Part shown: one piece after another, positions 7,151 through 30,373 of the stretch | Position numbering within the stretch: the stretch's first letter is position 1 | Layout: every line of letters begins with the position of its first letter | NCBI GenBank assembly: GCA_964480435.1 | Contig: CAYZSS010000004.1 | Coordinates: 13,839-45,838 of the forward strand | DNA length: 32,000 nucleotides | Source: an uncultured archaeon | Lineage (GTDB): Archaea > Iainarchaeota > Iainarchaeia > Iainarchaeales > 0-14-0-20-30-16 | Reading direction: 5' to 3' | The notes under the pieces: generated by a model | What the model was told of the DNA's origin: nothing | Seen by the model: the letters and a program-made list of their open reading frames with translations, nothing else | Database searches by the model: none | Program-made: the position numbers and the translations under genes

Positions 7151-7154
7151 TTAC

Positions 7155-8438: not shown

Positions 8439-8440
8439 GT

Positions 8441-9151
8441 CTATGCCTCCTTAAAATATTTTTTTGTATTTCCATCAAAAGTTATTTGTCCATCTTTAAG
8501 ATGTATTGTTCTGTTTGTCCATTTTGCGATTTCTTTTTCGTGTGTTACTATAATAACTGTTTTTTTGTGTTTTTTGTTTAAGTCTGTTAATAATGCAATT
8601 ATTTCTTGGCTAGATTTGCTGTCAAGATTTCCTGTTGGCTCGTCTGCGAAAATAATCTGTGGATCTGAAACTAATGCTCTTGCAATTGCAACTCTTTGTC
8701 TTTCCCCCCCTGATAATTCTTTTGGCTTGTGTTTATATCTGTGATTTAATCCTACTTTTGAAATTATGTCCTTTACTTTGTTATTAATTTCTGCACTGTC
8801 ATATTCGTGTATTCTTAAAGGAAGGGCTATGTTTTCAAATACTGATAGAGTTGGATACAAATTAAAAGTCTGAAATACAAAGCCAATGGTTTTTCCTCTT
8901 AGACGTGATAATTTTGATTCAGATAATTTAGTAATATTCTTTCCAGCTAAAATAATGTCTCCACTGGTGGGCTTGTCTAATGCACTCATAATTGATAAAA
9001 GCGTGGATTTTCCAGATCCTGATGCTCCTACAATAGAAATAAATTCTTCTGAGTTTATTTTTAGACTTACGTTTTTAACAACAGGTATTGAACCGGCCCC
9101 AATGTTATACGTTTTTACAATGTTTTTTAATTCTAATACAGGAATATCCAT
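8441..9151 (-). CDS. ABC transporter ATP-binding protein (MacB/LolD family)
   Basis: Walker A 'GASGSGKST', Q-loop 'FVFQTFNL', signature 'LSGGERQRVAIARAL', Walker B 'IIFADEPTGNLD' and H-loop 'IIVTHE'. Confidence 0.95.
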   Translation of the reverse strand: MDIPVLELKNIVKTYNIGAGSIPVVKNVSLKINSEEFISIVGASGSGKSTLLSIMSALDKPTSGDIILAGKNITKLSESKLSRLRGKTIGFVFQTFNLYPTLSVFENIALPLRIHEYDSAEINNKVKDIISKVGLNHRYKHKPKELSGGERQRVAIARALVSDPQIIFADEPTGNLDSKSSQEIIALLTDLNKKHKKTVIIVTHEKEIAKWTNRTIHLKDGQITFDGNTKKYFKEA

Positions 9152-12270: not shown

Positions 12271-15200
12271 ATGACTATGGGTTTAGGCGAATTTTTTGGG
12301 AAAATAAATGAAAAAATGAATTCTGGTTATAACAAAATTGTGGAATTTTTGGATGCAAAAGGGATTCCTGCCCAAAAATATACTGATTTTTTGGAAGAAA
12401 AAGGTATACCTGCTATGTGGTTTACCTTGCTGATGATCCTGGTAATAATTTCTGTGATTGTCTTGTTGGTTACAATAATTTTTACCCCTAGTACAAACCT
12501 AACAATTAGTATTATGACTAATGATGGTTTTTCCCCTGATTCTGTATTTTTAAATATTACTAAAGTGGCAGATGGGCAAGTAATAATTTCTGAGCAAGTT
12601 AAAGATGGTACTGAAATAAAAATAAAAGGTGTTGGTGTTGGAGATTCATTATATTTTTCAGGTACTTTAGAAGGTTATTCTTATGACTCCCCAAACAATG
12701 TATCGATTTCTGAAAAAAACTTAACTGTAACTTTGATATTTAATAAAGAAGAACAAACTGGGAGTGTTAGTTTTAAAGTAATAAATAAAGAAGAACAAAC
12801 AAGTGTAGCGAATGCTTTGATTTCGTTTTCTGATTCTGGGGATACATTGTCTTCTGGCCCCACTGATGAGTATGGTGCCTTTAAATTAATTTTACCTATG
12901 AAAAAAATAAATGTTACTGTTGATAAAGATGGTTATGAGCCTTATAGTAAAACAATAGACCTGCTAGAGGGAAATGATTATATTATTGAATTAGTTCCTA
13001 AGGAATTTGACCCTAATGCTGAAGGAAATTTTAAGTTTATTGTAAAAGATACATCGCTTAATTCTCTGAATAATGTAAGTATTGATGTTTATAATCTAAA
13101 GACTAATTCAAAAATTGGAACTGCGTTAACAAATACAGATGGTATAGGGATATTCAATACAAAAAAAGGAACTTCTATAAGATTTGTTGCAAAAAAAGAA
13201 GGTTATGAAACATTTGATTCAAATATTGAAGGTATTTCCCGAACTTTAGTTACTGATGAAGAACTAATATCTCTATCTATGTTTGCTGGTGGTAGTAAGC
13301 TAAAAGTAATAGTAAAAGATGAGTTAGGAGTTACTTTAGATAATGTTTATGTTGCTCTTTACACTTCCATGCTTTTGGAGCAAATGCAGGAAACAACGGA
13401 TATAGGTGGCGTGGCAGAATTTTCTGGGTTGGACTATACAATCTTAAAATATGCTTCTGTTTACAAAGAAGGTTATTACCCCCAAACACAAACAATTGAT
13501 GGATCTGGAGAAATAACTTTCACTCTTGAAAAAGTAGATTTGTCAAAAGCTGCTATTGTTGATGTGTTTTGTGTTGATTCTGATAAAAAACCAGTAGGAG
13601 ATGCATTTTTGGAACTTAGTTATGATGAAAATTCAGAATTATTTCCTTTAGCATATCCTAATCCAACAACATCAGTAACTGGTTATTTTACATTTAATTT
13701 TAAACCTGATGTTGTTTTGTATGCTTCTGCAAGTACTGAAGAAGGTTATGGATCTGCATCATTATTACTAAAACAAGGAAGAAATAGATTAGATATTTCT
13801 ATGACAAAAACCGGAAGTAAATTTACTATGTATCTTTATGATAAAGATGGAAATCCACTATCAAATGCTCATGTAATGCTTTTTGATAAACAAGGAAATT
13901 TAGTTTTTGATGGTTATACAGATGCAACTGGGAAAATAGAGGCTGATGCATTAGGAAATAAAGAACTTGATATGTATGTCACTGATGAGAATGGAAACAA
14001 TTATTCAATGACAATAAATCCAAAAGATAAAATGCAAATAAAATTAGATGCAGCAAAAAATACTGATAATTTATTTGTGGCTTTATCAAAAGTGACTGAT
14101 TTGGAAGGCAATGAAGTTTCTGCTTTGCAAAAAGGAAAAACATATTTTTTATTATTTAATATTTTTTGGCCTGCTGGATTTTATAATGGTGGGCTCCATG
14201 TAAGAGTTGGAAAAGATAGCGATAAATTTGCTGCATCTCAAGATGTTGGGATTATTGGCTATGATGGTATTGCAGATAGTGTAAAATACGGGATAATGTT
14301 CTCTCCTCTGCCATTGCCTGGAGATTATTCTACAGATTACTACTCTACTGGTAGTGCTGGGCAATTTAATAAATGGATGGAGTTGTATTTTTCTGCGCCT
14401 AGTGGAAATAGTACTGTAAAAGTAAGAATAAAATCAAAAGCAAATACTGACATAAATTCTTTTGAAGTAAGATATAGGGCTTGGACTGATGAAGCCGGGA
14501 CAATAAGCAGAATGCCTGTTGATAATATTTTGGGGCAAGAAGAAAATACAAAAACAAAATATGGTTTATATGCTGATGCTTATATGAAAGAAATTAGCTT
14601 AATGTCAGGTTCTTTAAACTGCCAATATGATGTTTGTGTATCGTATAAAATAATTGATGATCAATACACATACGACATTGCAAAATTTAATTCGGTTTTA
14701 GATTATTATTATGCTTTAGATGTGGAATTAACCTCAACTTCAGAACAAAATTTATCTTTGTCTGTTCAAACAGAAGACAATCCAAAATTATATTTGAATA
14801 ACGTGGATATGGATGCAACAACTTTTAATCCCGGAACAGAAAATAATACAAAACTTAATACCTCTTTTGACTTGGGGGCAATGGAAAATAAAACAATAAG
14901 AGTTTACTTTAATCCTTTTAAAGAAGGGCTTACAAAAATTGATGTGAAAACTATAACTCCAAAAGGAGTAATTGAGAAAACAATCCCAGTGAATATTTTT
15001 CCAAAGAAAGAAATGCAAGTAATATTAAGTAGTGATTTTATTCCAACTGGCCAAGATTTTTTTGTAATTGTAAAAGAATCAAATGGAGACTATATTCCAA
15101 ATGCACAAATTACAATTTCTGATAATAAAACAAAACAAAACAAAATGTTTATTGAGGGTACCGGCCAAATAGATTTAGGAAAAGAAGGAAAATACACAAT

Positions 15201-18200
15201 AAAAAATAGCCTAGATAGCGCATTTTATTTGATGTCAGTAAGTGCCCCAGGTTATTTACCAAAAGAAATGGAGTTTTTAGTTGGAAATGTTGGTGCTTTA
15301 TTTGTAAAAGGAGAAAATGAAATAATTGTTCCAAAAACTGCTAAACAGGCAACAATAAAAATACCTGTGCAAAATAAATCAAAGCTTCCAATAGACTCGA
15401 TGCAAATTAATGTTATAAGTTCTACTTTATCAACTAATTTTGCTTTTAATGCAAGAATGGTAACTCCGGCAATACCTGCGAATTCTTTGGCTGATATGTC
15501 TGTCTCTGTAAATTATAGCGGGGCAGAAGATATGGAAAATGGGGTTGTAGAATTAGAAATTCTTGGTGTGCAAAATAGTAAAGATATTGTAAGAGTAAGA
15601 ACAAAAGTATTTGTATATTATAATAAAGAAATAAAAAATGTAAATTGTTTGTGGGTAAGTAAAGAGTCATTAGTTTATAGTTTGCCTGCAATACAAAATG
15701 CAAAAGAAGAAGATTCTTTAGTAGTAAAAAATAACTGTGAATATGATTTGAAAGTAATGCCGTCTCTTGTTTCAGAAGACTCTGCAAATTATGGTCTGCA
15801 AATGCAAATTTTGGGGTTTGATATTAAAAAGGGTGAAGAAAAAGTAGTAAACCTTTCACTTATAAATCAAAATCCATCTGTGCAAGCAGATGAAACAAAA
15901 ATATTATCATTATATTTTGCAACAGACTATTTTACAAAAAATATCCCTGTGAGTGTAACAATTTGGAACGCATCAGGTTCATTGTCAATCTTAACTGCTG
16001 GACAGATTTTTATTTCTGCATTTAAAGAATTGCAGAGCCAATATGTGCCTGTAATTATTCAAAATGTTGGACGATTACCAATTTATAATATTCAATTGGC
16101 AGCATCTAATAATAAGTATCAAGTACAGTCTGCTCAGCAGTATCCTGATTTGATTAGTAGTTCTGTAAATTCTAATTCTTCAGGAATTACTAAAGACTAT
16201 TACGCAAATTTACAAAACGCACAAAGTCAATATAACAGTGTTTATAACAGCCCTTCAATTGGGTCTAATTTATCTGCTAGTCAAGGAATTAATTTTATAC
16301 CCGCAACAATTCAGGTTTTGGCTCCTGGGCAGTCTACTATGCTTCAAGGATATATAAATATGCCATCATCTTCAAAGCAAACAGAAATGTATTATTTGCT
16401 TAATGCTAAAGGTACAGTTCAGGGACTTAATCAACCAATAACTGCACAATCAATGTTGGTAATACATGTTTCACCTGATAAGTGTGTTACTCTGAAACAA
16501 GAAACAAAATTAACTTATATTAGTGATATACTTGGTAAGGATTTAGCAAGAACATTTACTTTGATAAATAATTGTGCTGAGCCAGTAAATATAACTGGAA
16601 TAAATGAAAGCGATTTGTTTGGAAATAAAGTTGTTTTGAGTGCACCAAATGGTAGTACAATTAATCTTGGGCAAGAAAAAGAATTTATTTTAACAATTAC
16701 TGCAAGTAAAGAAATCTCAAGAGATAATTCAGTATTTGTAAAAGCACAATTGGGGACAAGTAATGCTCCATTCAATATACCATTAATTGTTAATTTAAGG
16801 TTTGGTGGGGGAGCATCAACATCTGCTGGAGAAGCAAATGTAAGTGAAGAAAAAAGAATAAAAAATTGTACAACAAATGAAGAAGTATCTGTATTCTATC
16901 CAAGAATGTCTAATGCGGATTGTTCCACCATGGGGTATTGTGATGGGGAATCAATGTCTAAATTTTTAATTGCAAAATTAAAATTTTATCTGGATGTATA
17001 TAATAAAAAATTAGCAACAATAAATAACAAATTAATAAATACAAATTGTAAACTTGGTTCAACAGCTTGTTCATTTGAAGACTTTGGTTTAGAACCATTA
17101 GAAATGGACGTTTATTTTGCGAATGATAAACTAACGGAAGAACAAATGAAACTGGATTTTAAGAAAATGAATATGGGGCTGTTAGAAACAGCTATAACAG
17201 ACAAAGTTGTTTTAACTGATGTTACCTCTACTTGGGCAAAAAGATTGTATTTAGATAAACAATTAGACGGCTGTGGAAAATATAAAATAAGAATTACTGG
17301 TGCAGTAATGGTAATTAATAATGATTCAATACAAAGAGATAGTTACAACATGTATATCGAGGTTTTAAGTAAAGAAAAAACCCCGCAGTGTGATATTAAA
17401 GTACAAAACGCCTTGAACTTTTTGCCAAAAGATGCACAAACAAAAAAAGATAATCCTTATGGATTAAGAATAGGTTACGTTGATTATGCGTCAAGTAATT
17501 TAGAAAAAATAGCAGCAAAAGTTTCAACAAGTTTGTTTAGTGTGGATAGGTATATGAAATCAAAACCAAATACTATTTTCTTGAAAACAGATTCTGTTGC
17601 AGAAGGAAATTTAGTTGAATTTAGTATTGCAAAAACAGGAACAGATGTGGTGACTACTGTAAAAATAAATAAAAATTTGGACCTTTCAAATGTTGCAATT
17701 ATTGATGATATAGTAAAAGCAATTATGGGCTTTATAAATGGAAATTTTGATGGCTGTATGAATCTTACTTCTGATGGAGTTCCTAATTCAGCACAGGTGA
17801 AGTCCGGAACAGGTGGAATAACAGGGACTAAAAAAGATGCAAAAGAAGTATACTCAGGGGATATAAAAATAGGTGTTTGTGATAAACTGCCTCTGGGAAA
17901 AGGAAAATGGTCTTGTACTATAAATTTAGAATCACAATCTTTGGGTAGATTAAATTTGGCTTTGACTTACCCTGAAGGAACTGGGTTTGAAGCTTATATT
18001 GACTCTCCTGGCCAAAAATCAAAATCAGTGGATTTGAAAAAAAATGGCAATAAATATGAGGGTAGCTCAAAAATTACTGTTGAGATTAGTGATCCTTTCT
18101 TGGTTAATTCAGGGGCAAATAATGATAGTGTTGGTTTGTTCTACTATGCCGAAAAAGATGGTATACAAACAGACCCTATAAGAATAGGATTTGACCCAGC

Positions 18201-21200
18201 TTGTGGAATTACACCTCAATTATTTGTTGATAGTTTATTACAAAACACAGGTCAGAATGAAAAAGGATTTTCAAATTATGCTTTGATTTATGAACCAGGT
18301 GTTGAAAGTAGAGAAACATGTAAACTATTAGAAAACTTTTTGAAATCTAACCCTAATATTGGAAAAGGTGGGGTGTTTAATATAACACAAAAAGGATCAA
18401 ACAAATATGCCTTAATAAATTATGAAGACTGCCAACTGGATCAAAAAAGCATAGTTGCAGCAATGACTGACAATGTTGATGCTTCAAAATTGGGTGTTGC
18501 TACCGCAGCAGGAATGGCAGCCTGTATGACTCTGGAAATGGGTGCAGGAAAAGTATTAACTAAATTGCTTGGCCCAATAGGGTTTGTTGCGTCCGCAGTT
18601 GATTGTGGAATTATGATGAGTTTCAATGTGGGTAGTGAATTATATAAAACTCATAGACTAAAAGCTGAAGCAGGATTAAGCGAGAAAAATGCTCTTGATT
18701 CTATTCACGATGGTTTGGCATCTGTCCCTGTTCTGGGTACTATTTTGGGGATGGAAGAATATAATAATATTGATGAGCAAATAGCGGCAGCACAAGAAAC
18801 ACAAGACCCAAGTGCTCTGGCTAGTCTAACTAATGGTGCAAATGAAACCCTAATGACAAGTACCACAGATAATGAGAATGCAAATGCAGAAGTAGGTGCA
18901 GTAGGGTTTTTAAGAGGAGTATTGAATTCAAGAAAAGCAACAGGAATAACTAAGACTGAAACAGTGGTTCCTGGTACCCCTGGCACTCCTGCGGAAGGAG
19001 GGACAACGACTCCACCAACAGAAACACCCCCTACTACTGGTGAAGGTGGCACTCCAACTGAACCAGAAGCAGGCACTCCTAATGAAGGGGCAACAACTGG
19101 TGAAGGTGGAGATACTTCTACCCCTCCCCCTGAAGAGGGAGGAGCGACTCCGCCAGCAGAAACAACTGAGCCAATAACTCCTCAGGTTACTGATGAGGAA
19201 TTATTAAGGGCACAGCAAGCAATAGCCGATGCGGAAGCTGATTTAGCAGCAAAAAAACAAGTGCTGGATGCCGCTAATGCAAAGTCAACTGTAGCAAATG
19301 GAAATAAAGTCGCTGCACAAAGAGCAGTAACAGATTCAAGAATTAGAGTTGCAGACGCTATTGAAAAAAGAGAAGCGCTAGAAAATTATTTAAAAAATGT
19401 AGAGGCTGGATTAACAGAAACACATAAAGAGCTAGCAGCAATAGCAGAAAAAAGATTGGGTTTAGAAGATTTAATGGATGAAACTGGAGAATCATTAAGG
19501 GAAGCAAAAAATAAATTAGCAACAACTATTGGAGAAAGAGATGCCGCACAGATTTTATTGGATGACCTAATAGAACAAAGAAAAGGCGGACTTGAAATGC
19601 CCATTGATGATATTGTAAAAATAGAAGCAGATATAGTTGCCACACAAAATAAATTAAACTCACTTAATGAATTTGTAGCAGCTCAACCAAAAGCAATAAC
19701 TCCTTTACAGGATTTATATGATGCATCACAAAGATCATTCTCCGCAGTTTTAGCTGAGGAAGAAACAATTTTTGAAGGGCTAAAAAATGCAGAAGGAGCA
19801 AGAGTTTCTAGTGAATTTGTGCCCGCAAAAATAATAGCAGAAGAAAACGCAAAAAAAATATTATTTGATGCAGAAAGTGCTTTGAAAACAGCAACAAAAG
19901 AAGTAGCAACAGTTGCAGCAGAAGTAAAAGCCGCACAAAAAGCAGTAACAGCAGCAGAAGCAATAAGAACAAATGCACTTGCAAATGAAAAAAGTTTACT
20001 ATCTGTGAAAGAATTCTTAAAAACTCCCACTCAAATAAATGAGGCCTTAACTAGGGTGTCAAACAATGTTGATGAATTGGATGATTTAGTAAGAAGAGCT
20101 AGAGGGGGAGTAAATGCTGAAACAAAAGCTGGTTTAGAATCAGCAATAAGGCAAAAAGCTATAACAATAAATAAAGAATATGCAGCAATATCTCAATCAT
20201 TAAGTTCTGAAGCACCAGCAAAATGGAAGTTCTGGGCTACTAATCAACAAAAAAAGATAATAAAAGCTTACAATAAATTGGGACTTGCGGGTGCTGAAAC
20301 AGATACCGCATTTGGAAAAAAATTAGTATCAAAATGGACTTATAATAGAAAGTCTGATGCTCTAAAGAATGCAATAGATAATAGATTAACACCTCCAACA
20401 ACTGCAGCAGAAGCAGCAGTGGAAACCAAGGCTGTTGAAAATGCAGGAAAAGAAGCAGCAGCAACAAAAGTAAAAGCTACTAAACCTGTGGCCGCAACAG
20501 AACCCCCTAAAGTAACTCCTCCTCCAGAAGTAGGAGCAACAGCAGGAGGAACAGTTGGAGAAGAAGCAAAAACAGTAATAACAAAAACAGGAACAAGTAA
20601 ATTTGGAAACTTTATGAAAGGTATGGCAGTTGGAATTATAGGAGGTACCGCTGGTACAATCGCATTTTATGCTATGCTTGATTATGAACTGTCCAGTTCA
20701 AAATTAAATTTGATAACTATTGATGTTACTGCTCCAAGGCAGATATACAATTATAGTTCATATGTTGGATCGGTAAATCCTTTATTTAATACATCGAGAG
20801 ATCTGAATATTTTTGAGGGTTCAGATGGAAATGAGCTTGATAATTGTAGTGTTCTTGGGCAGTCAAAAGGATTCCAGGAAGTCCAGGGAACAAAAACAGG
20901 AATAGGTGGGAGTGGGACAGTAGGTTCTGAGCCTTCTGCATATGACTCATTAATAATAAAGGCGGCAAACAGCGCAGGAATAGAACCTGAATTATTGAAA
21001 GCAATATTAAAATCTGAGTCTGGTTTTAACACAAATTCAATTTCTGGATCTGGCTGTTCTGGATTAGGGCAGATTTGTAGAACAAGCGCAAATATAGAAT
21101 ATATAAAAGTGCAATGTTCTCAAAGCAAAACAGATGGTCCAAAAAAGTGTGATGTTACCACCTGTAAGAGTAGCGGGAGTTATGTTTGGTGTGATGCCTG

Positions 21201-22650
21201 TACTTCGGATGGTCCTAATTGTGTTGCAGATGATAGATTTGATCCTGAAAAGAATCTTATGGCCTCAGCTTTAATAGTGAAATCAAAAGCTAATTCAGTA
21301 GGAGACTGTGGAAAAGATAAAATAAAAGCCTGGGTTGCGGCTTATAACATGGGTCAAAAATGGGTTAATCAGGCAGTTGTTATGAATGGTGGAAATTGTG
21401 ATGATTGGGCTAATGAGGTTTGGTATAAACTAAAAGAAATAACTGATACAAACCCAGACTTAACCTATGAAAAAATAGCTAATAAAAAAGGTGATTATAC
21501 TAATACAAGTAGTGATTATGTTGCAAAAATTTATGATCAATATTTAGCATATAAAAATAATGGCCTTTCTGGTGGACAAAGTACTAACTCTAGTACAGGG
21601 TCAGGTGTAGGTACAGGAACAAGTATAGCAAATAATGCTAAGCCTTTGGAAAACTGTAGTGAAATAATGTTAGTAGGGGATTCCTTGACCGTTGGATATT
21701 CTCCCATATTTAATAGTAAATTTTGTGAAGGAGTAACTATTTGTGCTGTGGGTGGAAAACAAACTGATTGGATGTTCCAGACTTGTTTTACAGATGCAAA
21801 ATTAGCAAATATAAAATATGTTGTAATTATGGGTGGAATAAATGATTTATCAGCTAATAAGGCAGCAAGTACAATTCGGAATAATTTAACTCAAATGTAT
21901 TCTAAAGCAAAATCTAAAGGGATACCTGTTATTGCAATAACTTTACTTCCTTGGAAAGGATATAGAACTTGGACAGAAGCAAAACAAACAACTCAAGAAG
22001 GAATAAACAATTGGATAAAATCTTCACCGCTTGTTAGTTCTGTTTTAGATGGTTATGCTCTGTTTGATAATGGCTCTGATGAAATAATAGCTGAATATAA
22101 TTCAGGAAAACTTCATCTGACTAATTCAGGGTATGAAGTTTTGGCTAATGCAGTATTAGCAAAGTTTATGGAACTAAGTTCAGCTTCTGGGCAAACATCT
22201 GCTGGTGCTGGTACAACACCTCCCCCTGCAACTCCGCCTCCTGCACAAAAACCAGCTGATCCGCTAAGCACAGCAAAAGAATTACTTTCAAGTAATGGCT
22301 TTGATCCTGCTCTTTTACCTGCGGATAACTATATTGGCTCTGTAATTGTAAATGGGAATCAAATTACTGCTAATTTAACTGGTCAGATGTGTTCTAAGGT
22401 TGATGGTTTAACTGGTACTTTAGTTGCTGGTTATGATTCAGCACATAAAATCTGTTTTTCAGTAACTCCTGGGCAAATAAATCCTTGTAGTGGAAATGAA
22501 ATATATGGACTAAAAGGGGATGCAGGTTTTATTACAGCTAAGATAACCCAGATAGTTAAATCTGGCACTTCTTATACAATAAAAACAACTATACAGGACC
22601 AAGTTGTTGCTCAGAATAAGCTTGCGGGAATAGCATATGCTCCTTGCTAA
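12271..22650 (+). CDS. giant (3,459 aa) membrane-anchored multidomain surface protein with C-terminal SLT lytic transglycosylase and SGNH hydrolase domains
   Basis: A single uninterrupted 10,380-nt ORF. Codon usage is consistent with its neighbours. Domain evidence is itemised in the sub-features below. Confidence 0.9.
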   Translation: MTMGLGEFFGKINEKMNSGYNKIVEFLDAKGIPAQKYTDFLEEKGIPAMWFTLLMILVIISVIVLLVTIIFTPSTNLTISIMTNDGFSPDSVFLNITKVADGQVIISEQVKDGTEIKIKGVGVGDSLYFSGTLEGYSYDSPNNVSISEKNLTVTLIFNKEEQTGSVSFKVINKEEQTSVANALISFSDSGDTLSSGPTDEYGAFKLILPMKKINVTVDKDGYEPYSKTIDLLEGNDYIIELVPKEFDPNAEGNFKFIVKDTSLNSLNNVSIDVYNLKTNSKIGTALTNTDGIGIFNTKKGTSIRFVAKKEGYETFDSNIEGISRTLVTDEELISLSMFAGGSKLKVIVKDELGVTLDNVYVALYTSMLLEQMQETTDIGGVAEFSGLDYTILKYASVYKEGYYPQTQTIDGSGEITFTLEKVDLSKAAIVDVFCVDSDKKPVGDAFLELSYDENSELFPLAYPNPTTSVTGYFTFNFKPDVVLYASASTEEGYGSASLLLKQGRNRLDISMTKTGSKFTMYLYDKDGNPLSNAHVMLFDKQGNLVFDGYTDATGKIEADALGNKELDMYVTDENGNNYSMTINPKDKMQIKLDAAKNTDNLFVALSKVTDLEGNEVSALQKGKTYFLLFNIFWPAGFYNGGLHVRVGKDSDKFAASQDVGIIGYDGIADSVKYGIMFSPLPLPGDYSTDYYSTGSAGQFNKWMELYFSAPSGNSTVKVRIKSKANTDINSFEVRYRAWTDEAGTISRMPVDNILGQEENTKTKYGLYADAYMKEISLMSGSLNCQYDVCVSYKIIDDQYTYDIAKFNSVLDYYYALDVELTSTSEQNLSLSVQTEDNPKLYLNNVDMDATTFNPGTENNTKLNTSFDLGAMENKTIRVYFNPFKEGLTKIDVKTITPKGVIEKTIPVNIFPKKEMQVILSSDFIPTGQDFFVIVKESNGDYIPNAQITISDNKTKQNKMFIEGTGQIDLGKEGKYTIKNSLDSAFYLMSVSAPGYLPKEMEFLVGNVGALFVKGENEIIVPKTAKQATIKIPVQNKSKLPIDSMQINVISSTLSTNFAFNARMVTPAIPANSLADMSVSVNYSGAEDMENGVVELEILGVQNSKDIVRVRTKVFVYYNKEIKNVNCLWVSKESLVYSLPAIQNAKEEDSLVVKNNCEYDLKVMPSLVSEDSANYGLQMQILGFDIKKGEEKVVNLSLINQNPSVQADETKILSLYFATDYFTKNIPVSVTIWNASGSLSILTAGQIFISAFKELQSQYVPVIIQNVGRLPIYNIQLAASNNKYQVQSAQQYPDLISSSVNSNSSGITKDYYANLQNAQSQYNSVYNSPSIGSNLSASQGINFIPATIQVLAPGQSTMLQGYINMPSSSKQTEMYYLLNAKGTVQGLNQPITAQSMLVIHVSPDKCVTLKQETKLTYISDILGKDLARTFTLINNCAEPVNITGINESDLFGNKVVLSAPNGSTINLGQEKEFILTITASKEISRDNSVFVKAQLGTSNAPFNIPLIVNLRFGGGASTSAGEANVSEEKRIKNCTTNEEVSVFYPRMSNADCSTMGYCDGESMSKFLIAKLKFYLDVYNKKLATINNKLINTNCKLGSTACSFEDFGLEPLEMDVYFANDKLTEEQMKLDFKKMNMGLLETAITDKVVLTDVTSTWAKRLYLDKQLDGCGKYKIRITGAVMVINNDSIQRDSYNMYIEVLSKEKTPQCDIKVQNALNFLPKDAQTKKDNPYGLRIGYVDYASSNLEKIAAKVSTSLFSVDRYMKSKPNTIFLKTDSVAEGNLVEFSIAKTGTDVVTTVKINKNLDLSNVAIIDDIVKAIMGFINGNFDGCMNLTSDGVPNSAQVKSGTGGITGTKKDAKEVYSGDIKIGVCDKLPLGKGKWSCTINLESQSLGRLNLALTYPEGTGFEAYIDSPGQKSKSVDLKKNGNKYEGSSKITVEISDPFLVNSGANNDSVGLFYYAEKDGIQTDPIRIGFDPACGITPQLFVDSLLQNTGQNEKGFSNYALIYEPGVESRETCKLLENFLKSNPNIGKGGVFNITQKGSNKYALINYEDCQLDQKSIVAAMTDNVDASKLGVATAAGMAACMTLEMGAGKVLTKLLGPIGFVASAVDCGIMMSFNVGSELYKTHRLKAEAGLSEKNALDSIHDGLASVPVLGTILGMEEYNNIDEQIAAAQETQDPSALASLTNGANETLMTSTTDNENANAEVGAVGFLRGVLNSRKATGITKTETVVPGTPGTPAEGGTTTPPTETPPTTGEGGTPTEPEAGTPNEGATTGEGGDTSTPPPEEGGATPPAETTEPITPQVTDEELLRAQQAIADAEADLAAKKQVLDAANAKSTVANGNKVAAQRAVTDSRIRVADAIEKREALENYLKNVEAGLTETHKELAAIAEKRLGLEDLMDETGESLREAKNKLATTIGERDAAQILLDDLIEQRKGGLEMPIDDIVKIEADIVATQNKLNSLNEFVAAQPKAITPLQDLYDASQRSFSAVLAEEETIFEGLKNAEGARVSSEFVPAKIIAEENAKKILFDAESALKTATKEVATVAAEVKAAQKAVTAAEAIRTNALANEKSLLSVKEFLKTPTQINEALTRVSNNVDELDDLVRRARGGVNAETKAGLESAIRQKAITINKEYAAISQSLSSEAPAKWKFWATNQQKKIIKAYNKLGLAGAETDTAFGKKLVSKWTYNRKSDALKNAIDNRLTPPTTAAEAAVETKAVENAGKEAAATKVKATKPVAATEPPKVTPPPEVGATAGGTVGEEAKTVITKTGTSKFGNFMKGMAVGIIGGTAGTIAFYAMLDYELSSSKLNLITIDVTAPRQIYNYSSYVGSVNPLFNTSRDLNIFEGSDGNELDNCSVLGQSKGFQEVQGTKTGIGGSGTVGSEPSAYDSLIIKAANSAGIEPELLKAILKSESGFNTNSISGSGCSGLGQICRTSANIEYIKVQCSQSKTDGPKKCDVTTCKSSGSYVWCDACTSDGPNCVADDRFDPEKNLMASALIVKSKANSVGDCGKDKIKAWVAAYNMGQKWVNQAVVMNGGNCDDWANEVWYKLKEITDTNPDLTYEKIANKKGDYTNTSSDYVAKIYDQYLAYKNNGLSGGQSTNSSTGSGVGTGTSIANNAKPLENCSEIMLVGDSLTVGYSPIFNSKFCEGVTICAVGGKQTDWMFQTCFTDAKLANIKYVVIMGGINDLSANKAASTIRNNLTQMYSKAKSKGIPVIAITLLPWKGYRTWTEAKQTTQEGINNWIKSSPLVSSVLDGYALFDNGSDEIIAEYNSGKLHLTNSGYEVLANAVLAKFMELSSASGQTSAGAGTTPPPATPPPAQKPADPLSTAKELLSSNGFDPALLPADNYIGSVIVNGNQITANLTGQMCSKVDGLTGTLVAGYDSAHKICFSVTPGQINPCSGNEIYGLKGDAGFITAKITQIVKSGTSYTIKTTIQDQVVAQNKLAGIAYAPC
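12415..12483 (+). other. giant protein: N-terminal TM anchor (aa 49-71)
   Basis: 'MWFTLLMILVIISVIVLLVTIIF' follows a 48-aa Lys/Glu-containing soluble stub. It resembles a signal-anchor rather than a cleaved signal peptide. Confidence 0.7.
12499..14046 (+). repeat. giant protein: six tandem ~80-aa carboxypeptidase-regulatory-like beta-sandwich repeats (protein-level repeats)
   Basis: Each unit reads roughly as 'x(V/I)xVxDxxxxP(L/V)xxAxVxL ... T(D/N)xxGxxxF ... GxYxxxxxK(E/D)GY(E/Y)'. Examples are 'TDEYGAFKL..VDKDGYEPY', 'TNTDGIGIF..AKKEGYETF', 'TDIGGVAEF..VYKEGYYPQ' and 'TDATGKIEA'. A seventh copy lies at nt 15013-15282. Confidence 0.65.
18490..18624 (+). other. giant protein: pair of Gly/Ala-rich hydrophobic segments (possible TM hairpin or membrane-insertion segments)
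   Basis: 'LGVATAAGMAACMTLEMGAG' and 'LLGPIGFVASAVDCGIMMSF' are separated by 5 residues. Each contains charged residue(s), so membrane spanning is uncertain. Confidence 0.4.
18967..19185 (+). repeat. giant protein: Pro/Thr/Glu/Gly low-complexity linker
   Basis: 'PGTPGTPAEGGTTTPPTETPPTTGEGGTPTEPEAGTPNEGATTGEGGDTSTPPPEEGGATPPAETTEPITP', with 'TTGEGG' occurring twice. GC is locally elevated. Confidence 0.85.
19189..20388 (+). other. giant protein: ~400-aa Ala/Glu/Lys-rich alpha-helical (coiled-coil-like) region
   Basis: Long Pro-poor stretches such as 'LLRAQQAIADAEADLAAKKQVLDAANAK' and 'ATKEVATVAAEVKAAQKAVTAAEAIRTNALANEK'. This is judged by eye; no coiled-coil predictor was run. Confidence 0.6.
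20620..20679 (+). other. giant protein: internal Gly-zipper-like TM helix (aa 2784-2803)
   Basis: 'GMAVGIIGGTAGTIAFYAML' is preceded by a second Pro/Ala/Thr-rich linker (20389-20570). Confidence 0.6.
20935..21450 (+). other. giant protein: SLT (family-1 lytic transglycosylase) domain
   Basis: Motif I 'LLKAILKSESGFN' (Glu2916, codon 21016-21018), motif II 'GLGQI' (GLMQ-like) and motif III 'AAYNMGQ' (AYNxG). A Cys-rich insertion lies between motifs II and III. Confidence 0.8.
21655..22176 (+). other. giant protein: SGNH/GDSL hydrolase domain
   Basis: Block I 'MLVGDSLTVG' (Ser3138, codon 21682-21684), block II 'AVGGKQT', block III 'IMGGINDL' and block V 'KLHLTNSGYEVLA'. His is present, but the Asp of DxxH is not. 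Confidence 0.8.
22264..22647 (+). other. giant protein: ~128-aa C-terminal domain of unknown function after a third Pro-rich linker
   Basis: Follows 'GTTPPPATPPPAQKPADP'. It contains 4 Cys and ends 'GIAYAPC'. There is no TM segment and no recognisable sorting signal. Confidence 0.4.
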
Positions 22651-22931: not shown

Positions 22932-23165
22932 TTGCCGAATATAGACATTCTTAATCATATTTTAGTACCTAAGTTTGAAATAATGAAAGACGAAGAACTA
23001 AAACTTTTTTTTAAAGAAAGGGGAATAAGTAGAACTGAACTTCCCACAATGAAAGCAATAGACCCTGTTGTACCTCTTATTAATGCAAAATCTGGTGATG
23101 TTGTAAAGATCACTCGAAAATCAAATTTTGGTGGAATTTGCTATTACTATAGGGTTGTGGAGTGA
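22932..23165 (+). CDS. rpoH: DNA-directed RNA polymerase subunit H (Rpo5)
   Basis: 'NHILVPKFEIMKDEE...LPTMKAIDPVV...GDVVKITRKS...YYRVV' matches the RpoH signature. TTG start, with no in-frame ATG or GTG upstream of the conserved HILVPK. GGGGGT is SD-like and lies 6 nt upstream. Confidence 0.85.
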   Translation: MPNIDILNHILVPKFEIMKDEELKLFFKERGISRTELPTMKAIDPVVPLINAKSGDVVKITRKSNFGGICYYYRVVE

Positions 23166-23170
23166 TATTT

Positions 23171-24643
23171 ATGACATATTGGCCGCTTGTAGAATCATAT
23201 TTTAAAAGTACAGACTTAATTAAGCAAAATATTGAGTCATATAATCTATTTTTAGAGAAAGAACTTCCCGAAATTATAAAAGAAAATACTATAATTGAAT
23301 CAAAGGTTGGAAATGTAGAATTAGAAATAAGTAATTTACAAATTCTGCCTCCTCAAGTAATTGAGGCAGATGGTTCCAGAAGAAATGATGTATATCCAAT
23401 GGAAATAAGATTAAGAGATAAGAGCTACACAGCCCCAATTTATGTTGATATTAATTTGAAAAGAAAAGGTGTTGTTTACGATCAAAAAAGAAGTTATATT
23501 GGTGACTTGCCAATTATGGTGAAATCAAATAAATGTTTACTTAATGGCTTATCAAAAGAAGAACTAATTGCTTTGGCAGAAGACCCAAAAGATCCTGGTG
23601 GATACTTTATAATTAATGGTAGTGAAAAAATAATTGTAAACCAAGAAATATTAGCAGATAAAAGAATGCTTGTTTCTGATTTGTCAAATGGGAAAGTTTC
23701 CGTAGATGTAATTTCTACAAAAGGAGCATTTAGAGGAAAAGTAAAAATTTTAAGAAATCCAAATGGATTATTAGAAGTATCATTCCCGTCCAGTCCTAAA
23801 AAATTAAAACTATTTATTCTATTAAGGGCTTTGGGGTTAGAAACCTATGAAGAATTTTCAAATGCTTTTTCTGGAAAGCAAGAAGTAAAAAACGATATTT
23901 TACTTAATTTTGAAAAAGTTGGTGCAGAAACCGAAGAAGATGCTTTGGATAAAATTGGTAAATATGTTGCGCCAGGCCAGATTATAAGTTATAGACTTAG
24001 AAGAGCGCAAGAAGTAATAGATTCTTTCCTACTTCCTCATATTGGACAAACTCCACAAAAAAGGTTGATGAAGGCATATTATTTAGCAACTATGGCTGAA
24101 AGAGCAATAGAAAGAGCCTATGGAAAAAGGCAAGAAGATGATAAAGACAATTATATGAATAAAAAAATTGATATGAGTGGAAAATTATTAGCTCAACAAT
24201 TTAGATATGCTTTCAAATTTTTTGTAAGCGATATAAAATTCCAAATTGATAGAAATATTGTAAGAAGAAGAAAACTAAATATTAATACAATAATTAGACC
24301 AAGTGCTTTAACAGATAGATTGAACTTTGCTATGGCTACAGGTAGCTGGGCTGCAAGGTTGCAAGGTGTTTCAAAGTATGTTGAAAAAATCAATTGGTTA
24401 TGTAACTATATTGAATTAAGAAGAGTAAGATCTACTTTGGACAGAACAAGAGAGAATTATGAAGCTAGAGATGTGCATGGTTCCGCATTGGGGAGAATTT
24501 GTCCAATACAAACTCCGGATGGTCCTATGTGTGGTTTAGCAAAGAATCTGGCATTAATGTCTAAAGTTACAAATGAAATAGATTCTGAATCTGTTCAAAA
24601 TACAGTAACTAAATTAGGTGTTGTAGAGAGATCTAAAAAGTAA
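23171..24643 (+). CDS. rpoB2: DNA-directed RNA polymerase subunit B'' (N-terminal half of split Rpo2)
   Basis: 'SYNLFLEKELPEII', 'GDLPIMVKSNKC', 'DPGGYFIINGSEKIIVNQE' and 'ICPIQTPDGPMCGLAKNLALM'. The SD GAGTGAT contains the rpoH TGA stop. The ORF track starts at GTG 23162. Confidence 0.95.
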   Translation: MTYWPLVESYFKSTDLIKQNIESYNLFLEKELPEIIKENTIIESKVGNVELEISNLQILPPQVIEADGSRRNDVYPMEIRLRDKSYTAPIYVDINLKRKGVVYDQKRSYIGDLPIMVKSNKCLLNGLSKEELIALAEDPKDPGGYFIINGSEKIIVNQEILADKRMLVSDLSNGKVSVDVISTKGAFRGKVKILRNPNGLLEVSFPSSPKKLKLFILLRALGLETYEEFSNAFSGKQEVKNDILLNFEKVGAETEEDALDKIGKYVAPGQIISYRLRRAQEVIDSFLLPHIGQTPQKRLMKAYYLATMAERAIERAYGKRQEDDKDNYMNKKIDMSGKLLAQQFRYAFKFFVSDIKFQIDRNIVRRRKLNINTIIRPSALTDRLNFAMATGSWAARLQGVSKYVEKINWLCNYIELRRVRSTLDRTRENYEARDVHGSALGRICPIQTPDGPMCGLAKNLALMSKVTNEIDSESVQNTVTKLGVVERSKK

Positions 24644-24710
24644 TATTAATAAAAAATAAACAAAAAAAATAATAGAAAAAAAATAAAAGTAGCAATAAGA
24701 ACCAAAAAAA

Positions 24711-24797
24711 TTAAGGTGATATTATGGATCAAGTTGGTGATTTTAAAAAAGAAAAATCACAACAGGATTACATAATTTAAGGTGATATTATGGATCA
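24711..24797 (+). repeat. 21-nt exact direct repeat (TTAAGGTGATATTATGGATCA) at 24711-24731 and 24777-24797
   Basis: Both copies were read directly from the sequence. The repeat spans the SD (GGTGAT), the spacer, the ATG and 5 further coding nt of rpoB'. Confidence 0.95.
24724..24780 (+). CDS. 18-codon upstream mini-ORF (MDQVGDFKKEKSQQDYII) preceding rpoB'
   Basis: It has the same SD, spacer and ATG as rpoB'. Its TAA stop (24778-24780) abuts the genuine rpoB' SD. Whether it is translated is unknown. Confidence 0.3.
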   Translation: MDQVGDFKKEKSQQDYII

Positions 24798-26595
24798 GGC
24801 AAAAATTTATTTTGATGGTAGTTTGATGGGGTTTCATGAGGATCCTAAGAAATTAATAAAAGAACTAAAGAAACTAAGAAGAGAAAATAAACTTAGTCCT
24901 AATGTTAACATAAGTCATATGGATAGCACAAATGAAATCTATATAAATACTAGTGCTGGAAGAATCCAAAGGCCATTAATTGTAATAGAAAATGGAAAGC
25001 CAAAATTAACTCCTGAACATCTTGAAAAAGTAAAAAAAGGACAATTATCTTTTGATGATTTAATAAAAAATGGATTAGTAGAATATTTAGATGCGGAAGA
25101 AGAAGATAATGCTTATGTTGCAATATTTGAAAAAGATTTAACTAAAGAACACACACATTTAGAACTTGATCCTGTTGTTTTATTTGGATTTGTTGTTGGA
25201 ATGATTCCGTATGTGAATCAAAATGCACCTGGAAAATCATTGCACGGGGCAAAAATGTTTAAACAGACAGTTGGTTATTGTAACCCTAATCAAAATTATA
25301 GAGTTGATACTGATTCTTATGAATTATATTATCCTCAAAGACATCTAGTAAAAACAAAAGTAATGGACTTGCTTAATTCTGATGATAGGCCATTAATACA
25401 AAATTTTGTTGTTGCAATTATGCCTTACTACGGATATAATATGCAGGATGCTGTGGTAATAAATAAAGGGGCAGTAGACAGAGGTTTAGGAAGATTATCT
25501 TATTATAGAACTTATACAACTGAAGAAACAATTTATCCAGGTGGATTAAAAGATGCAATTTGTTATCCTGATGAAGATGTTGAAGACCATTTAGGTGAAG
25601 ACGCATATTCAATTTTGGGTGATGATGGGCTTGCAGAAGTTGAAACTTTTGCATCAAGAAAAAATGTTGTTGTTGGAAAAACATCTCCTCCAAAATATGT
25701 TGAAGAAATTTCGGAGTTTGGTGTTTTAAAAGAAAAAAGAATAGATAGTTCATTGGATATTAGAAAAAATAAAGAAGGATATGTTGATAAAGTATTTTTA
25801 AGTAGTGATGGAATTGCAAAAAAAGTAAAAATAAAAATAAGAACTCCCAAAATACCTGAAATGGGGGATAAGTATGCATCCAAACACGGACAGAAGGGTG
25901 TTATCGGGTATGTTGCAAAAGAAGAGGACATGCCTTTTAGTGTTAATGGTTCAAAACCAGATCTAATTCTAGATCCACACTCAATACCAACTAGAATGAC
26001 TGTTGCACATCTAATTGAAATGTTAGCGGGAACTGCTGCTTGTGCATGTGGAAAGGAAATTGATGGTACTGCTTATTCAGGAGTAAATGCTGAAGAATTA
26101 AGAACCATTTTGATAAAGAACGGGTTTTCTCCTTCCGGAATGGAAACTTTTTATGATGGTCTAACAGGAAAAAAACTTGTTGGAGAAATATTTACTGGTT
26201 TAATTTCTTATAGAAGATTATACCACTTTGTGTCTCACAAAATGCAGGCAAGATCTAGAGGCCCTGTTCAAATGTTAACAAGGCAACCTACTGAAGGAAT
26301 GGAGAAAGAAGGTGGATTAAAATTCGGTGAGATGGAAACAGACTGTTTAATTGGGTACGGAGCAACAATGCTTTTAAATGAAAAACTTTTGGATGATTCA
26401 GATAAAATTATTGTGCCGGTATGTAAAAAATGTGGTATTGTGGCAGTAAGTGATAATATACAAAAGAAAACTTATTGTAATATTTGTAATAAATCAGAGA
26501 TTGTAAGGGTTGCTATGCCTTACGCATTTAAGATCTTTTTAGATGAATTAAGGTCTTTGATGATATATCCTAAATTAGCAGTTAAGGAGTTTTAA
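24790..26595 (+). CDS. rpoB1: DNA-directed RNA polymerase subunit B' (C-terminal half of split Rpo2)
   Basis: 'GDKYASKHGQKGVIG', 'PDLILDPHSIPTRMTVAHLIE', 'RGPVQMLTRQPTEG', 'FGEMETDCLIGYGA' and a C-terminal Zn ribbon 'CKKCG...CNICN'. Confidence 0.95.
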   Translation: MDQAKIYFDGSLMGFHEDPKKLIKELKKLRRENKLSPNVNISHMDSTNEIYINTSAGRIQRPLIVIENGKPKLTPEHLEKVKKGQLSFDDLIKNGLVEYLDAEEEDNAYVAIFEKDLTKEHTHLELDPVVLFGFVVGMIPYVNQNAPGKSLHGAKMFKQTVGYCNPNQNYRVDTDSYELYYPQRHLVKTKVMDLLNSDDRPLIQNFVVAIMPYYGYNMQDAVVINKGAVDRGLGRLSYYRTYTTEETIYPGGLKDAICYPDEDVEDHLGEDAYSILGDDGLAEVETFASRKNVVVGKTSPPKYVEEISEFGVLKEKRIDSSLDIRKNKEGYVDKVFLSSDGIAKKVKIKIRTPKIPEMGDKYASKHGQKGVIGYVAKEEDMPFSVNGSKPDLILDPHSIPTRMTVAHLIEMLAGTAACACGKEIDGTAYSGVNAEELRTILIKNGFSPSGMETFYDGLTGKKLVGEIFTGLISYRRLYHFVSHKMQARSRGPVQMLTRQPTEGMEKEGGLKFGEMETDCLIGYGATMLLNEKLLDDSDKIIVPVCKKCGIVAVSDNIQKKTYCNICNKSEIVRVAMPYAFKIFLDELRSLMIYPKLAVKEF

Positions 26596-26606
26596 GGGGT
26601 ATCATT

Positions 26607-29216: not shown

Positions 29217-29242
29217 CCAATGAAATAAAGGTGTGATATTTT

Positions 29243-30373
29243 ATGAATTTGCCGATAAGCGTAGAAAATAAGATAAAAAAATATGTTGAGAAACATAAAC
29301 TTTCTAAAGATCAAGAGAAAAGTTTATACAAAGCAGGAGAGGAACTATATCTTAATGCAAAAGTAGTTCCTTATGATACTGTTGGACTTTTAGCTGCACA
29401 TTCAATGGCGGAACCGGCAACTCAGATGATACTTAGAACAAAGCACTTTTCAGGTGCTGCGGAAGTATCAGTTGGATCGGGAATTGAGATATTATCTTCG
29501 TTGGTTGATGCTAGAAGTAAAGTAAGATCTCCATCTATGCACGTATTTTTGAAAGAAGATTTTGCAAAAGATGATGCGAAAGCAAAAAACTGTCTTGCAA
29601 ACTTAGTATATGCTATATTGGATGATGTTGCAGTAATATCTGAAGACTTAGAAACAAAAAAAATAACAGTAACATTTGATAATAAGCTAGTTGCTGAGAA
29701 AAGCGTTGATAAAAAAGAAATACTTGAAGTTTTGAAAAAACAATATAAGAAAAAAATAACTGAGGAAAAAAATGGAGTATCCATCTCTTTTGATGATGTT
29801 AATTTGCAAACCGTAAGGAAGAATTTCCTGAAACTTAAGAAGATGAAAGTAATAGGTTTGGAAGGTATTACTGATGCAATACTTTTAAAAGATGATACTG
29901 GATATTATATTACTACAGAAGGTAGTAACTTTAAAGATGTATTTGATCTTGATTTTGTAGATACAAATAAGACTTACACCAACGATGTAATGGAAACTGC
30001 AAGAGTTTTAGGAATCGAAGCAGCAAGACAACTGTTGGTAAATGAACTAATTAAAGTTTATAAGGATAACGGCATCAATATAGATGCAAGACATCTTATT
30101 CTGCTATCAGATGTAATGTGTTTTGAAGGGACAATAAAAGGAACAGTAAGATCTGGAATTGTTAGCACAAAAGAAAGTCCTTTGGCAAGAGCATCATTTG
30201 AACAAACAGAAAAAGTATTGTTTGATGCAGGATTTGCAGAGGAAAATGAAAAGTTTACAGGTATAATTGAAAATATTTTGGCTGGTTTACCAATAAATGT
30301 TGGGATCGGAAGAATAGAATTAATAATGGATGATTTAGGAATAGAAAAAAAGAAGAGCAAAGGTGGTAAATGA
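29243..30373 (+). CDS. rpoA2: DNA-directed RNA polymerase subunit A'' (C-terminal part of split Rpo1)
   Basis: 'VGLLAAHSMAEPATQMILRTKHFSGAA' (trigger-loop region), 'VLGIEAARQLLVNEL' and 'RHLILLSDVMCFEGTIKG'. The position after rpoA' is canonical. Confidence 0.9.
   Translation: MNLPISVENKIKKYVEKHKLSKDQEKSLYKAGEELYLNAKVVPYDTVGLLAAHSMAEPATQMILRTKHFSGAAEVSVGSGIEILSSLVDARSKVRSPSMHVFLKEDFAKDDAKAKNCLANLVYAILDDVAVISEDLETKKITVTFDNKLVAEKSVDKKEILEVLKKQYKKKITEEKNGVSISFDDVNLQTVRKNFLKLKKMKVIGLEGITDAILLKDDTGYYITTEGSNFKDVFDLDFVDTNKTYTNDVMETARVLGIEAARQLLVNELIKVYKDNGINIDARHLILLSDVMCFEGTIKGTVRSGIVSTKESPLARASFEQTEKVLFDAGFAEENEKFTGIIENILAGLPINVGIGRIELIMDDLGIEKKKSKGGK

Follow-up and report, generated by a model that had tools for sequence, protein, structure and literature searches.

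The DNA considered here is a 32,000-nucleotide window on contig CAYZSS010000004.1 of assembly GCA_964480435.1 (positions 13,839 to 45,838, forward strand), from an uncultured archaeon of the Iainarchaeota. It contains a very long open reading frame (ORF) for a giant surface protein, with an archaeal RNA polymerase (RNAP) operon directly downstream. Near the C-terminal end of this protein lie a GH23 lytic transglycosylase (SLT) domain and an SGNH/GDSL esterase domain, and this pair, at window positions 20935-22176 (residues 2889-3302), is the subject of our analysis. An initial annotation made from the sequence had described it as a bacterial-type set of peptidoglycan-degrading enzymes in an archaeon, probably acquired from bacteria or phage and possibly directed at bacterial walls. 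The SLT/SGNH observation is real and far beyond chance, and the overall interpretation is partly supported. The module falls within the one ORF, and the same gene has been called at 3,457 aa in an independent ENA assembly, where SLT and Lipase_GDSL_2 matches are also recorded; the public gene call begins two codons later than the ORF used here. Coordinates are collected in Table 1.

Table 1. Features of the giant gene and of the adjoining operon, in window coordinates.
Feature	Position	Strand	Description and basis
Giant surface protein ORF	12271..22650	+	3,459 aa; ORF list and translation
Sole strong transmembrane helix, N-terminal membrane anchor	12427..12483	+	residues 53-71, LLMILVIISVIVLLVTIIF; Kyte-Doolittle, Hessa scale
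Immunoglobulin-like (Ig-like) / beta-sandwich repeats	12484..16170	+	~1,230 aa; Pfam CarboxypepD_reg in three stretches, 71 bits
Central region without recognisable domain	16183..18804	+	residues 1305-2178, ~17 Cys; ortholog alignment
Pro/Thr linkers, then Ala/Glu/Lys-rich region	18970..20430	+	linkers at residues 2234-2301, then ~420 aa; composition and linker scan
Gly-rich, marginally hydrophobic segment	20617..20679	+	residues 2783-2803, GMAVGIIGGTAGTIAFYAML; Hessa scale
GH23 family-1 lytic transglycosylase (SLT) domain	20935..21570	+	residues 2889-3100; Pfam, profile, AlphaFold2/Foldseek
Cys-rich insertion	21115..21237	+	residues 2949-2989; between SLT motif II and DDRFDPxKN
SGNH/GDSL esterase domain	21646..22170	+	residues 3126-3300; Pfam, profile and fold matches
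C-terminal domain, predicted all-beta	22276..22647	+	~125 aa, 4 Cys; follows Pro/Thr linker
rpoH-rpoB''-rpoB'-rpoA'-rpoA'' operon	22932..30373	+	archaeal RNAP; Pfam, rpoH ORF, gene calls of the second assembly (L008)

Two enzyme domains near the C-terminal end

All seven motifs quoted in the initial annotation occur once each at the residues it gave: KSESGFN at 2914 (with the catalytic Glu2916), GLGQI at 2931 and AAYNMGQ at 3023 in the SLT domain, and GDSLT at 3136 (Ser3138), GGKQT at 3161, GGIND at 3188 and LHLTNSGY at 3281 (His3282) in the SGNH domain. The spacing of about 70 aa assigned to the two sets was too short, since GDSLT starts 106 residues past the end of AAYNMGQ, or about 35-45 residues past the end of the SLT domain. 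Both domain assignments are upheld by Pfam, by profile searches against the PDB and by AlphaFold2/Foldseek comparison.

Pfam places SLT (PF01464) on residues ~2894-3100 with 55.7 bits against a curated cut-off of 21.3 (E 4.6e-15), and a fourth family-1 motif, missing from the initial list, is present as the Tyr in SDYVAKIY. When the domain is aligned with 20 relatives (21 sequences; alignment A1), the catalytic Glu (codon at 21016-21018), G-L-x-Q, Y-N-x-G and the motif IV Tyr are invariant. The A1 profile finds MltC as its top match in the PDB (E 3e-19), followed by MltE, g-type lysozymes, Slt70, MltF, T7 gp16 and a tape-measure protein. In an AlphaFold2 model of residues 2880-3310 the confidence score (pLDDT) is 88-94 across the SLT domain, and Foldseek matches the model to MltE (3T36, 2Y8P) and MltF (5AA1) with probability 1.00, in agreement with a goose-lysozyme-like alpha-helical fold. 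In its four family motifs, its catalytic Glu-Ser and its fold, the domain agrees with E. coli MltC, MltE/EmtA, Slt70 and MltF; it differs from them in some 30 extra residues forming the Cys-rich beta-hairpin insertion, in its 10 Cys and in reading GLGQ instead of GLMQ. It also differs in setting: enzymes of the MltC/MltE type are periplasmic lipoproteins, whereas this SLT domain lies near the C-terminal end of a giant archaeal protein.

The insertion had been described as about 45 aa with 8 Cys at nt 21075-21240. Eight Cys do lie between motifs II and III, but only 7 of them fall in that interval. Compared with MltC, about 40 positions of the subfamily profile replace a loop of about 10 residues, for a net gain of about 30, and AlphaFold2 models the insertion as beta hairpins (pLDDT 80-90). 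A conserved Cys pattern (QCxQ...GPxxC...C...WC..C...NC) recurs in 18 of the 21 A1 sequences, and at least 8 Cys are found in 23 of 29 full-length SLT relatives; by its sequence, the SLT domain is a member of a distinct Cys-rich GH23 subfamily. With 10 Cys in the SLT domain and 4 in the SGNH domain, the module has 14 in all, and every one is kept, together with Glu2916, Ser3138, Asn3191 and His3282, in both orthologs. One of these comes from a metagenome-assembled genome (MAG) labelled Candidatus (I)ainarchaeum sp. STB_43, the closest named genome (L001), and the other is a fragment (P0001). An even number of conserved Cys would fit extracellular disulfide bonding.

The SGNH domain is recognised by Pfam as Lipase_GDSL_2 (PF13472) on residues 3135-3290 (54.1 bits against a curated cut-off of 32.9, E 3.6e-14). 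GDS, GxN and His are invariant among 19 aligned SGNH sequences (A3), and the block II Gly is present in GGKQT. The codons of Ser3138 and His3282 lie at 21682-21684 and 22114-22116, and Asn3191 is part of GGIND. As the initial annotation had noticed, block V lacks its Asp: the sequence reads G3279-K-L-H3282, and both orthologs have the same Gly3279. This does not imply an inactive enzyme, because SGNH esterases of family CE2 such as CtCE2 and BpEst2A have documented Ser-His dyads and are active without the block V Asp.

The proposal that this is an SGNH esterase of the Ape type finds no support, as Ape1 is missing from its solved relatives at E<=1e-3 and from the top 50 Foldseek matches. The nearest solved structures, by profile and by fold, are the polyvinyl-alcohol esterase 9KR0 and the acetylxylan esterase PbeAcXE (7TOG/7TOH), the latter being the best Foldseek match; further near structures are uncharacterised Bacteroides acylhydrolases (3P94, 4IYJ, 4HF7, 4PPY), a sialate O-acetylesterase and a platelet-activating factor (PAF) acetylhydrolase. 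PatB ranks just 47th by fold. With about 175 contiguous residues, the domain can be aligned over its full length with single-domain esterases about 200 residues long and has no counterpart of the carbohydrate-binding module (CBM) that, according to a review, is inserted in the SGNH domain of NmApe1. We regard it as a putative small acetyl-esterase; acetylated polymers are the substrates of its closest characterised relatives. The SGNH fold is common to it and to CtCE2, BpEst2A and PbeAcXE, but such enzymes act on plant xylan, carry CBM domains and are only about 18-24% identical to it.

Architecture and topology of the giant protein

The first 52 residues of the giant protein are hydrophilic. 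Within this presumptive cytoplasmic N terminus, the short motifs FLDAKGIP and FLEEKGIP stand in tandem directly before the transmembrane helix (window 12340-12415). The helix itself has a Kyte-Doolittle peak of 3.47 and a summed Hessa-scale insertion free energy of -6.65 kcal/mol. In the Ig-like region that follows, Pfam also gives sub-threshold matches to bMG3, Big_1 and Ig_DR_A0283-like families, and we read this region as a probable stalk or adhesin. The central region is the best conserved part of the protein, at 66.5% identity to the L001 ortholog (878 aligned columns) against 51.6% overall, and nothing in Pfam, PHROG or the PDB sequences matches it. It probably matters for function, perhaps in partner recognition.

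The Ala/Glu/Lys-rich region is probably a coiled coil by its composition; neither it nor the central region has meaningful PDB sequence matches. A likeness to the heptad repeats of coronavirus spike S2 (residues 2385-2482, window 19423-19716; phmmer E 0.011-0.15) reflects coiled-coil composition, not homology. The idea that the coiled-coil region is tape-measure-like also lacks homology support; PHROG matches fall only in the SLT and SGNH domains. On either side of the coiled coil lies a hydrophobic element. One is a weakly hydrophobic Gly/Ala-rich stretch at residues 2074-2118 (window 18490-18624). The other, at residues 2783-2803, is about 85 aa upstream of the SLT domain, has a summed Hessa-scale energy of +1.9 kcal/mol (borderline for a transmembrane segment) and is conserved in the L001 ortholog as FMKGLGQSIGGGAAGTFAFYGMLD. 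Both may be additional membrane-spanning or re-entrant segments, or they may insert into the membrane of a target, and the topology of the enzyme region depends on which of these they are.

After the second segment, the order is SLT domain, Ser/Gly linker, SGNH domain, Pro/Thr linker and C-terminal domain. The C-terminal domain has no detectable homolog, with no Pfam match at E<=1, is absent from both orthologs, which end right after the SGNH domain, and gave an unusable single-sequence AlphaFold2 model (pLDDT 42); it may be a lineage-specific binding module. The simplest topology would place everything beyond residue 71 outside the cell, provided that segment 2783-2803 does not span the membrane. 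The conserved Cys, the N-terminal anchor and the Ig-like repeats after it make the extracellular, disulfide-bonded location proposed in the initial annotation plausible.

Relatives and genomic context

The family to which this protein belongs was revealed by an exhaustive HMMER search of 1.84 billion representatives. With the 590-aa C-terminal region as query, word-indexed protein searches gave no match at E<=1e-5; with the SLT domain alone they gave 3, and with A1 mostly generic bacterial SLTs. On the subfamily profile, such generic SLTs reach at most 105 bits, compared with 183-246 bits for subfamily members. A genome scan was made with a narrower alignment (A2), as A1 was too diverse, and gave at least four loci, a number to be read as a lower bound because A2 relies on the single pattern DDRFDPxKN.

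An SLT domain is present in 48 of the best 150 relatives. Its commonest partner is Lipase_GDSL_2, found in 12 of these 48 and on either side of the SLT domain; the other partners are Peptidase_M23, M15_4, M74, Amidase_2, Polysacc_deac_1 (CE4), DUF2272, DUF218 and Metallophos. One Woesearchaeota protein, MBI4980284.1, combines CE4, SGNH and SLT. Because fusion of SLT and SGNH recurs in both orders, beside murein-specific peptidases and amidases, the two domains would be expected to share a substrate, and the repeated fusion of the SLT subfamily to M15_4, M23, M74, Amidase_2 and CE4 makes the peptidoglycan target named in the initial annotation plausible. In many relatives (P0002-P0016), a motif of about 50 residues (C...RC.EIDE.W...VWD...W..F) lies just upstream of the SLT domain; the window protein is without it. 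The same set recurrently carries DUF218 and metallophosphatase domains and looks like a family of secreted multi-enzyme toolkits. A further observation is a match to the T4SS_pilin family in 2 of the 48 SLT-bearing relatives, a possible sign that some of the members are from type IV secretion contexts or from candidate phyla radiation (CPR) bacteria and not from archaea.

The ortholog in L001 has the same order of SLT followed by SGNH and is 51.6% identical over residues 1322-3309. Two genes further downstream in L001 comes rpoB'', whose product shares 91.9% identity with the RpoB'' of the window. The giant protein has thus diverged rapidly, as would be expected of a protein that interacts with another organism. 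Giant relatives measure at least 1,941 aa in L001, where the sequence is truncated, and 2,226 aa in a further genome (L004). The exact architecture is rare, with finds only from this locus (two or three assemblies), from L001 and from the fragment P0001, and two metagenome scans for it returned nothing beyond P0001's own contig; the broader Cys-rich SLT subfamily is common.

Six relatives bear an organism name, and all of them are archaeal: the '(I)ainarchaeum' MAG, two Woesearchaeota, a Nanoarchaeota, an unclassified archaeon and a bin labelled Methanosarcinales. A tblastn search of 50,697 phage records gave no match, and IMG/VR gave just one weak locus at 28% identity. Acquisition from bacteria or phage, as first proposed, is therefore not borne out by these relatives. 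The domains are bacterial in type by sequence, but no recent donor, bacterial or phage, can be put forward, and the SLT subfamily looks established within DPANN.

The host genome is archaeal, as the initial annotation had it, on the evidence of flanking archaeal ribosomal proteins and the split RNAP operon. Upstream of the giant gene, Pfam identifies eS1 (S3Ae) and uS15 with the archaeal/eukaryotic S13/S15 N-domain, and the RNAP operon is followed by genes for an L7Ae-family protein, S12 and S7. Because this operon adjoins the giant gene, it establishes both the domain of life and the synteny. The possibility that the module is a bacterial or phage fragment misassembled into an archaeal contig deserved attention, since both domains are typical of bacteria and the GC content, about 31% at this locus, climbs to 37-39% at 18-21 kb of the window. 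This rise is confined to codon positions 1 and 2 (0.49-0.55) and is accounted for by the amino acid composition of the Pro/Thr linkers and the Ala/Glu-rich coiled coil. GC at third codon positions (GC3) is flat along the whole ORF, at 0.13-0.21, and agrees with the 0.16-0.25 of the ribosomal and RNAP genes. The tetranucleotide correlation of the module, 0.87-0.91, is inside the window's own scatter. The independent ENA assembly (L008) is 99.97% identical across 15.4 kb spanning the 3' half of the gene, with the module, and the RNAP operon, and the L001 ortholog has the same domain order upstream of rpoB'' in another archaeal MAG. Neither composition nor assembly comparison shows the break that the initial annotation had named as a possible sign of a chimera, and on these four grounds (GC3, tetranucleotides, second assembly and syntenic ortholog) we reject that explanation almost entirely.

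Two other loci in the window may be mentioned. At 5876-9151 (minus strand), 3 kb upstream of the giant gene, is a MacB/FtsX-type ATP-binding cassette (ABC) system that consists of a MacB_PCD plus FtsX permease, a 427-aa ORF without a Pfam match and an ABC ATPase; in bacteria, FtsEX-type systems switch on extracellular wall hydrolases. A patatin-like phospholipase (110.6 bits) is encoded at 1310-2113; a host-dependent archaeon could use such an enzyme to attack membranes or scavenge lipids. Scans of the 32-kb window for tRNA genes and Rfam families found none.

Putative action on bacterial peptidoglycan

We lean toward reading this protein as a membrane-anchored giant surface protein of a DPANN archaeon whose C-terminal part is predicted to de-O-acetylate and cleave bacterial peptidoglycan. 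The single N-terminal helix would anchor the protein in the archaeal membrane, and the chain would continue through about 1,200 residues of Ig-like repeats, the Cys-containing central region, the Pro/Thr linkers and the long coiled coil to the SLT domain, stiffened by its disulfide-rich insertion, and the SGNH domain. Where the protein meets a bacterial cell or debris of bacterial walls, the SGNH domain would strip acetyl esters from the glycan by means of a Ser3138-His3282 dyad and an oxyanion hole formed by Gly and Asn3191. Its likeliest target would be the 6-O-acetyl group on N-acetylmuramic acid (MurNAc), a modification that blocks lytic transglycosylases. With Glu2916 as acid/base, the SLT domain would then cut the beta-1,4 bond between MurNAc and N-acetylglucosamine (GlcNAc), and the outcome would be a local opening of the wall for attachment, feeding or killing.

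Such a division of labor has an obvious analogue in Neisseria. Lytic transglycosylases are controlled by O-acetylation of peptidoglycan on MurNAc; Ape1 belongs to the SGNH/GDSL-2 enzymes, and its functional coupling with LtgA has been described. The likeness would be one of an SGNH/GDSL-2 esterase and a lytic transglycosylase that act on one polymer, with de-O-acetylation as the prerequisite. Ape1 and LtgA are separate proteins, whereas here the two are covalently fused and the esterase lacks both the triad Asp and the CBM of NmApe1. Phage T7 gp16 and SLT-bearing tape-measure proteins offer a looser comparison, as long, largely helical SLT proteins that open peptidoglycan during envelope penetration; they have no homology to the present protein beyond SLT, and the present protein is chromosomal, membrane-anchored and adhesin-like.

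Several observations weigh against our reading. Hydrolytic g-type lysozymes are also among the matches of the SLT profile and GH23 includes some chitinases, so that transglycosylase chemistry and murein specificity of the SLT domain are putative. Ape1 is not among the 56 solved SGNH relatives at E<=1e-3 or the top 50 Foldseek matches, and it is thus from the fusion to SLT, not from family membership, that we infer de-O-acetylation of peptidoglycan. The SGNH domain is distant in sequence from Ape1, PatB and OatA and lacks the triad Asp, which is kept by 16 of the 19 aligned SGNH sequences; its substrate could thus be a different acetylated glycan or a lipid, or its activity could be weak. The count of SGNH partners among the relatives is inflated, as the search query itself held the SGNH domain. 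Segment 2783-2803, if it alone spanned the membrane in addition to the N-terminal helix, would place the enzymes on the cytoplasmic side. A class A penicillin-binding protein (PBP) occurs in a related DPANN lineage, and the bacterial partner is hypothetical.

The same enzymes may serve another use, such as the harvest of peptidoglycan from dead cells and wall debris by an auxotroph, or a general antibacterial weapon. Nothing in the sequence demands a living host; peptidoglycan of dead bacteria has been proposed in the literature as a nutrient for Pacearchaeota, and archaeal antibacterial peptidoglycan hydrolases with experimental support have been described. Even so, we think such a use unlikely. 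The enzymes are tethered to the cell through an anchored protein of some 3,400 residues and are not secreted, which favors action at contact, and divergence this fast relative to RpoB'' fits a partner-specific interaction better than bulk scavenging. Alternatively, the SLT domain may act on peptidoglycan while the SGNH domain clears the way to the wall, either by deacetylating a capsule, teichoic acid or extracellular polysaccharide or as a lipase or lysophospholipase on the outer membrane of the target. The range of its nearest solved relatives (acetylxylan, polyvinyl-alcohol, PAF and sialate esterases and Bacteroides acylhydrolases) favors this idea, as do the 'lipase' label that PHROGs gives to the best viral SGNH match and the JGI annotation of relatives as 'lysophospholipase L1-like esterase'. 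The recurrence of the pairing with SLT in both orders and the relative that unites CE4, SGNH and SLT point instead to a shared polymer substrate, and the top fold matches act on acetylated polymers and not on lipids; we accordingly rate this alternative a little lower again. More doubtful than either is the thought that the protein is the contact apparatus of a bacterium-dwelling archaeon, in which segments 2074-2118 and 2783-2803 and the coiled coil would insert into or span the bacterial envelope and, by analogy with ejected SLT-bearing phage proteins, form a bridge for archaeal feeding after the wall is cut. If true, this would be a first molecular handle on cross-domain episymbiosis of an archaeon on a bacterium.

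Action on the archaeon's own wall must also be weighed. The initial annotation had reasoned that archaea lack murein and that the substrate is hence not self. Nothing found here suggests self action, but the premise is weakened by the PBP of the related lineage. This intact class A PBP (L005:4444-6522, minus strand; contig JAHFSD010000023.1, assembly GCA_023265925.1) has a Transgly domain (133.6 bits) and a Transpeptidase domain (79.6 bits) with the motifs EDxxFxxHxG, SAFK (SxxK), SNN (SxN) and KTGS (KTG); GlmS and an ATP-grasp ligase are encoded nearby, and at 1.5 kb lies the gene of P0036, a small lipoprotein-like SLT of the same Cys-rich subfamily. The contig appears to be archaeal and from a related DPANN lineage: it shares SLT-NUDIX-GlmS synteny, 80% GlmS identity and GC content with contigs that carry archaeal Spt5-NGN, SecE and FtsZ, and P0067, an SLT-cluster member encoded on the Spt5-bearing contigs, is named Nanoarchaeota in NCBI. 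The PBP may indicate murein-like synthesis, or some other use of a PBP, in a DPANN archaeon, and the argument for a foreign substrate therefore needs to be checked genome by genome. For the present protein, the neighborhood of P0036 and the PBP on an archaeal-looking contig is what speaks for an autolysin in a lineage that builds a murein-like wall with horizontally acquired genes. We hold this very improbable. The PBP lineage has 47% GC and small SLT proteins, against 31% GC and a giant adhesin-like protein here; no murein synthesis gene was found in the 32-kb window; enzymes placed beyond a stalk of more than 2,700 residues are hard to square with action on the cell's own wall; and we know of no archaeon that makes murein.

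Our reading of a surface protein directed at bacterial walls fits into an existing discussion of giant lytic-transglycosylase proteins in DPANN archaea, which have been in print with the same interpretation from 2013 to 2022. To our knowledge, the hosts of all cultivated DPANN archaea are archaea, and the case for bacterium-associated DPANN has so far been built mainly on giant proteins with lytic transglycosylase domains. Lytic murein transglycosylase domains in these archaea go back to Rinke 2013, as cited by Castelle 2021, and were noted in Castelle 2015 (AR20). Castelle et al. 2021 (PMC8204110) described fam00969, extracellular proteins of up to 3,000 aa from Pace- and Woesearchaeota that may bind and degrade bacterial walls, and Vigneron 2022 (PMC9723730) built a 'vampiristic' model on the same genes, an idea repeated in later papers. 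The protein described here resembles fam00969-type proteins, by description only, in its DPANN genome, its size of about 3,000 aa or more, its GH23/SLT domain and its wall-degrading interpretation, and may also share their predicted membrane-bound or extracellular location; its closest named genome is Candidatus (I)ainarchaeum and not one of the Pace- or Woesearchaeota. In the searchable literature we found no mention of the SGNH partner, the Cys-rich SLT insertion and subfamily, this domain order or the giant form in the Iainarchaeum-labelled lineage. The SPEARE proteins of Nanohaloarchaeota (PMC6642349) are likewise giant DPANN surface proteins, proposed for host attachment and breaching, and the proposed role here is of the same attach-and-breach kind. 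Pfam and NCBIfam scans of the whole giant protein gave no protease or endonuclease family of the SPEARE type. SPEARE proteins reportedly combine protease, adhesion and restriction-endonuclease domains and target archaeal hosts.

Because the basic idea has already been published, the gain from the present protein is incremental. The analysis delimits a module small enough to express (about residues 2805-3310) and makes a Cys-rich SLT subfamily recognisable, both of use for biochemical tests and surveys; the class A PBP of the related lineage is a separate lead that could complicate the 'non-self' argument. For the association of DPANN archaea with bacteria, the protein adds circumstantial weight: a fused acetyl-esterase would suit decorated bacterial peptidoglycan as the putative substrate, the pairing of SLT and SGNH is recurrent and is joined by murein-specific peptidases and amidases among the relatives, and the giant protein is evolving much faster than core genes.

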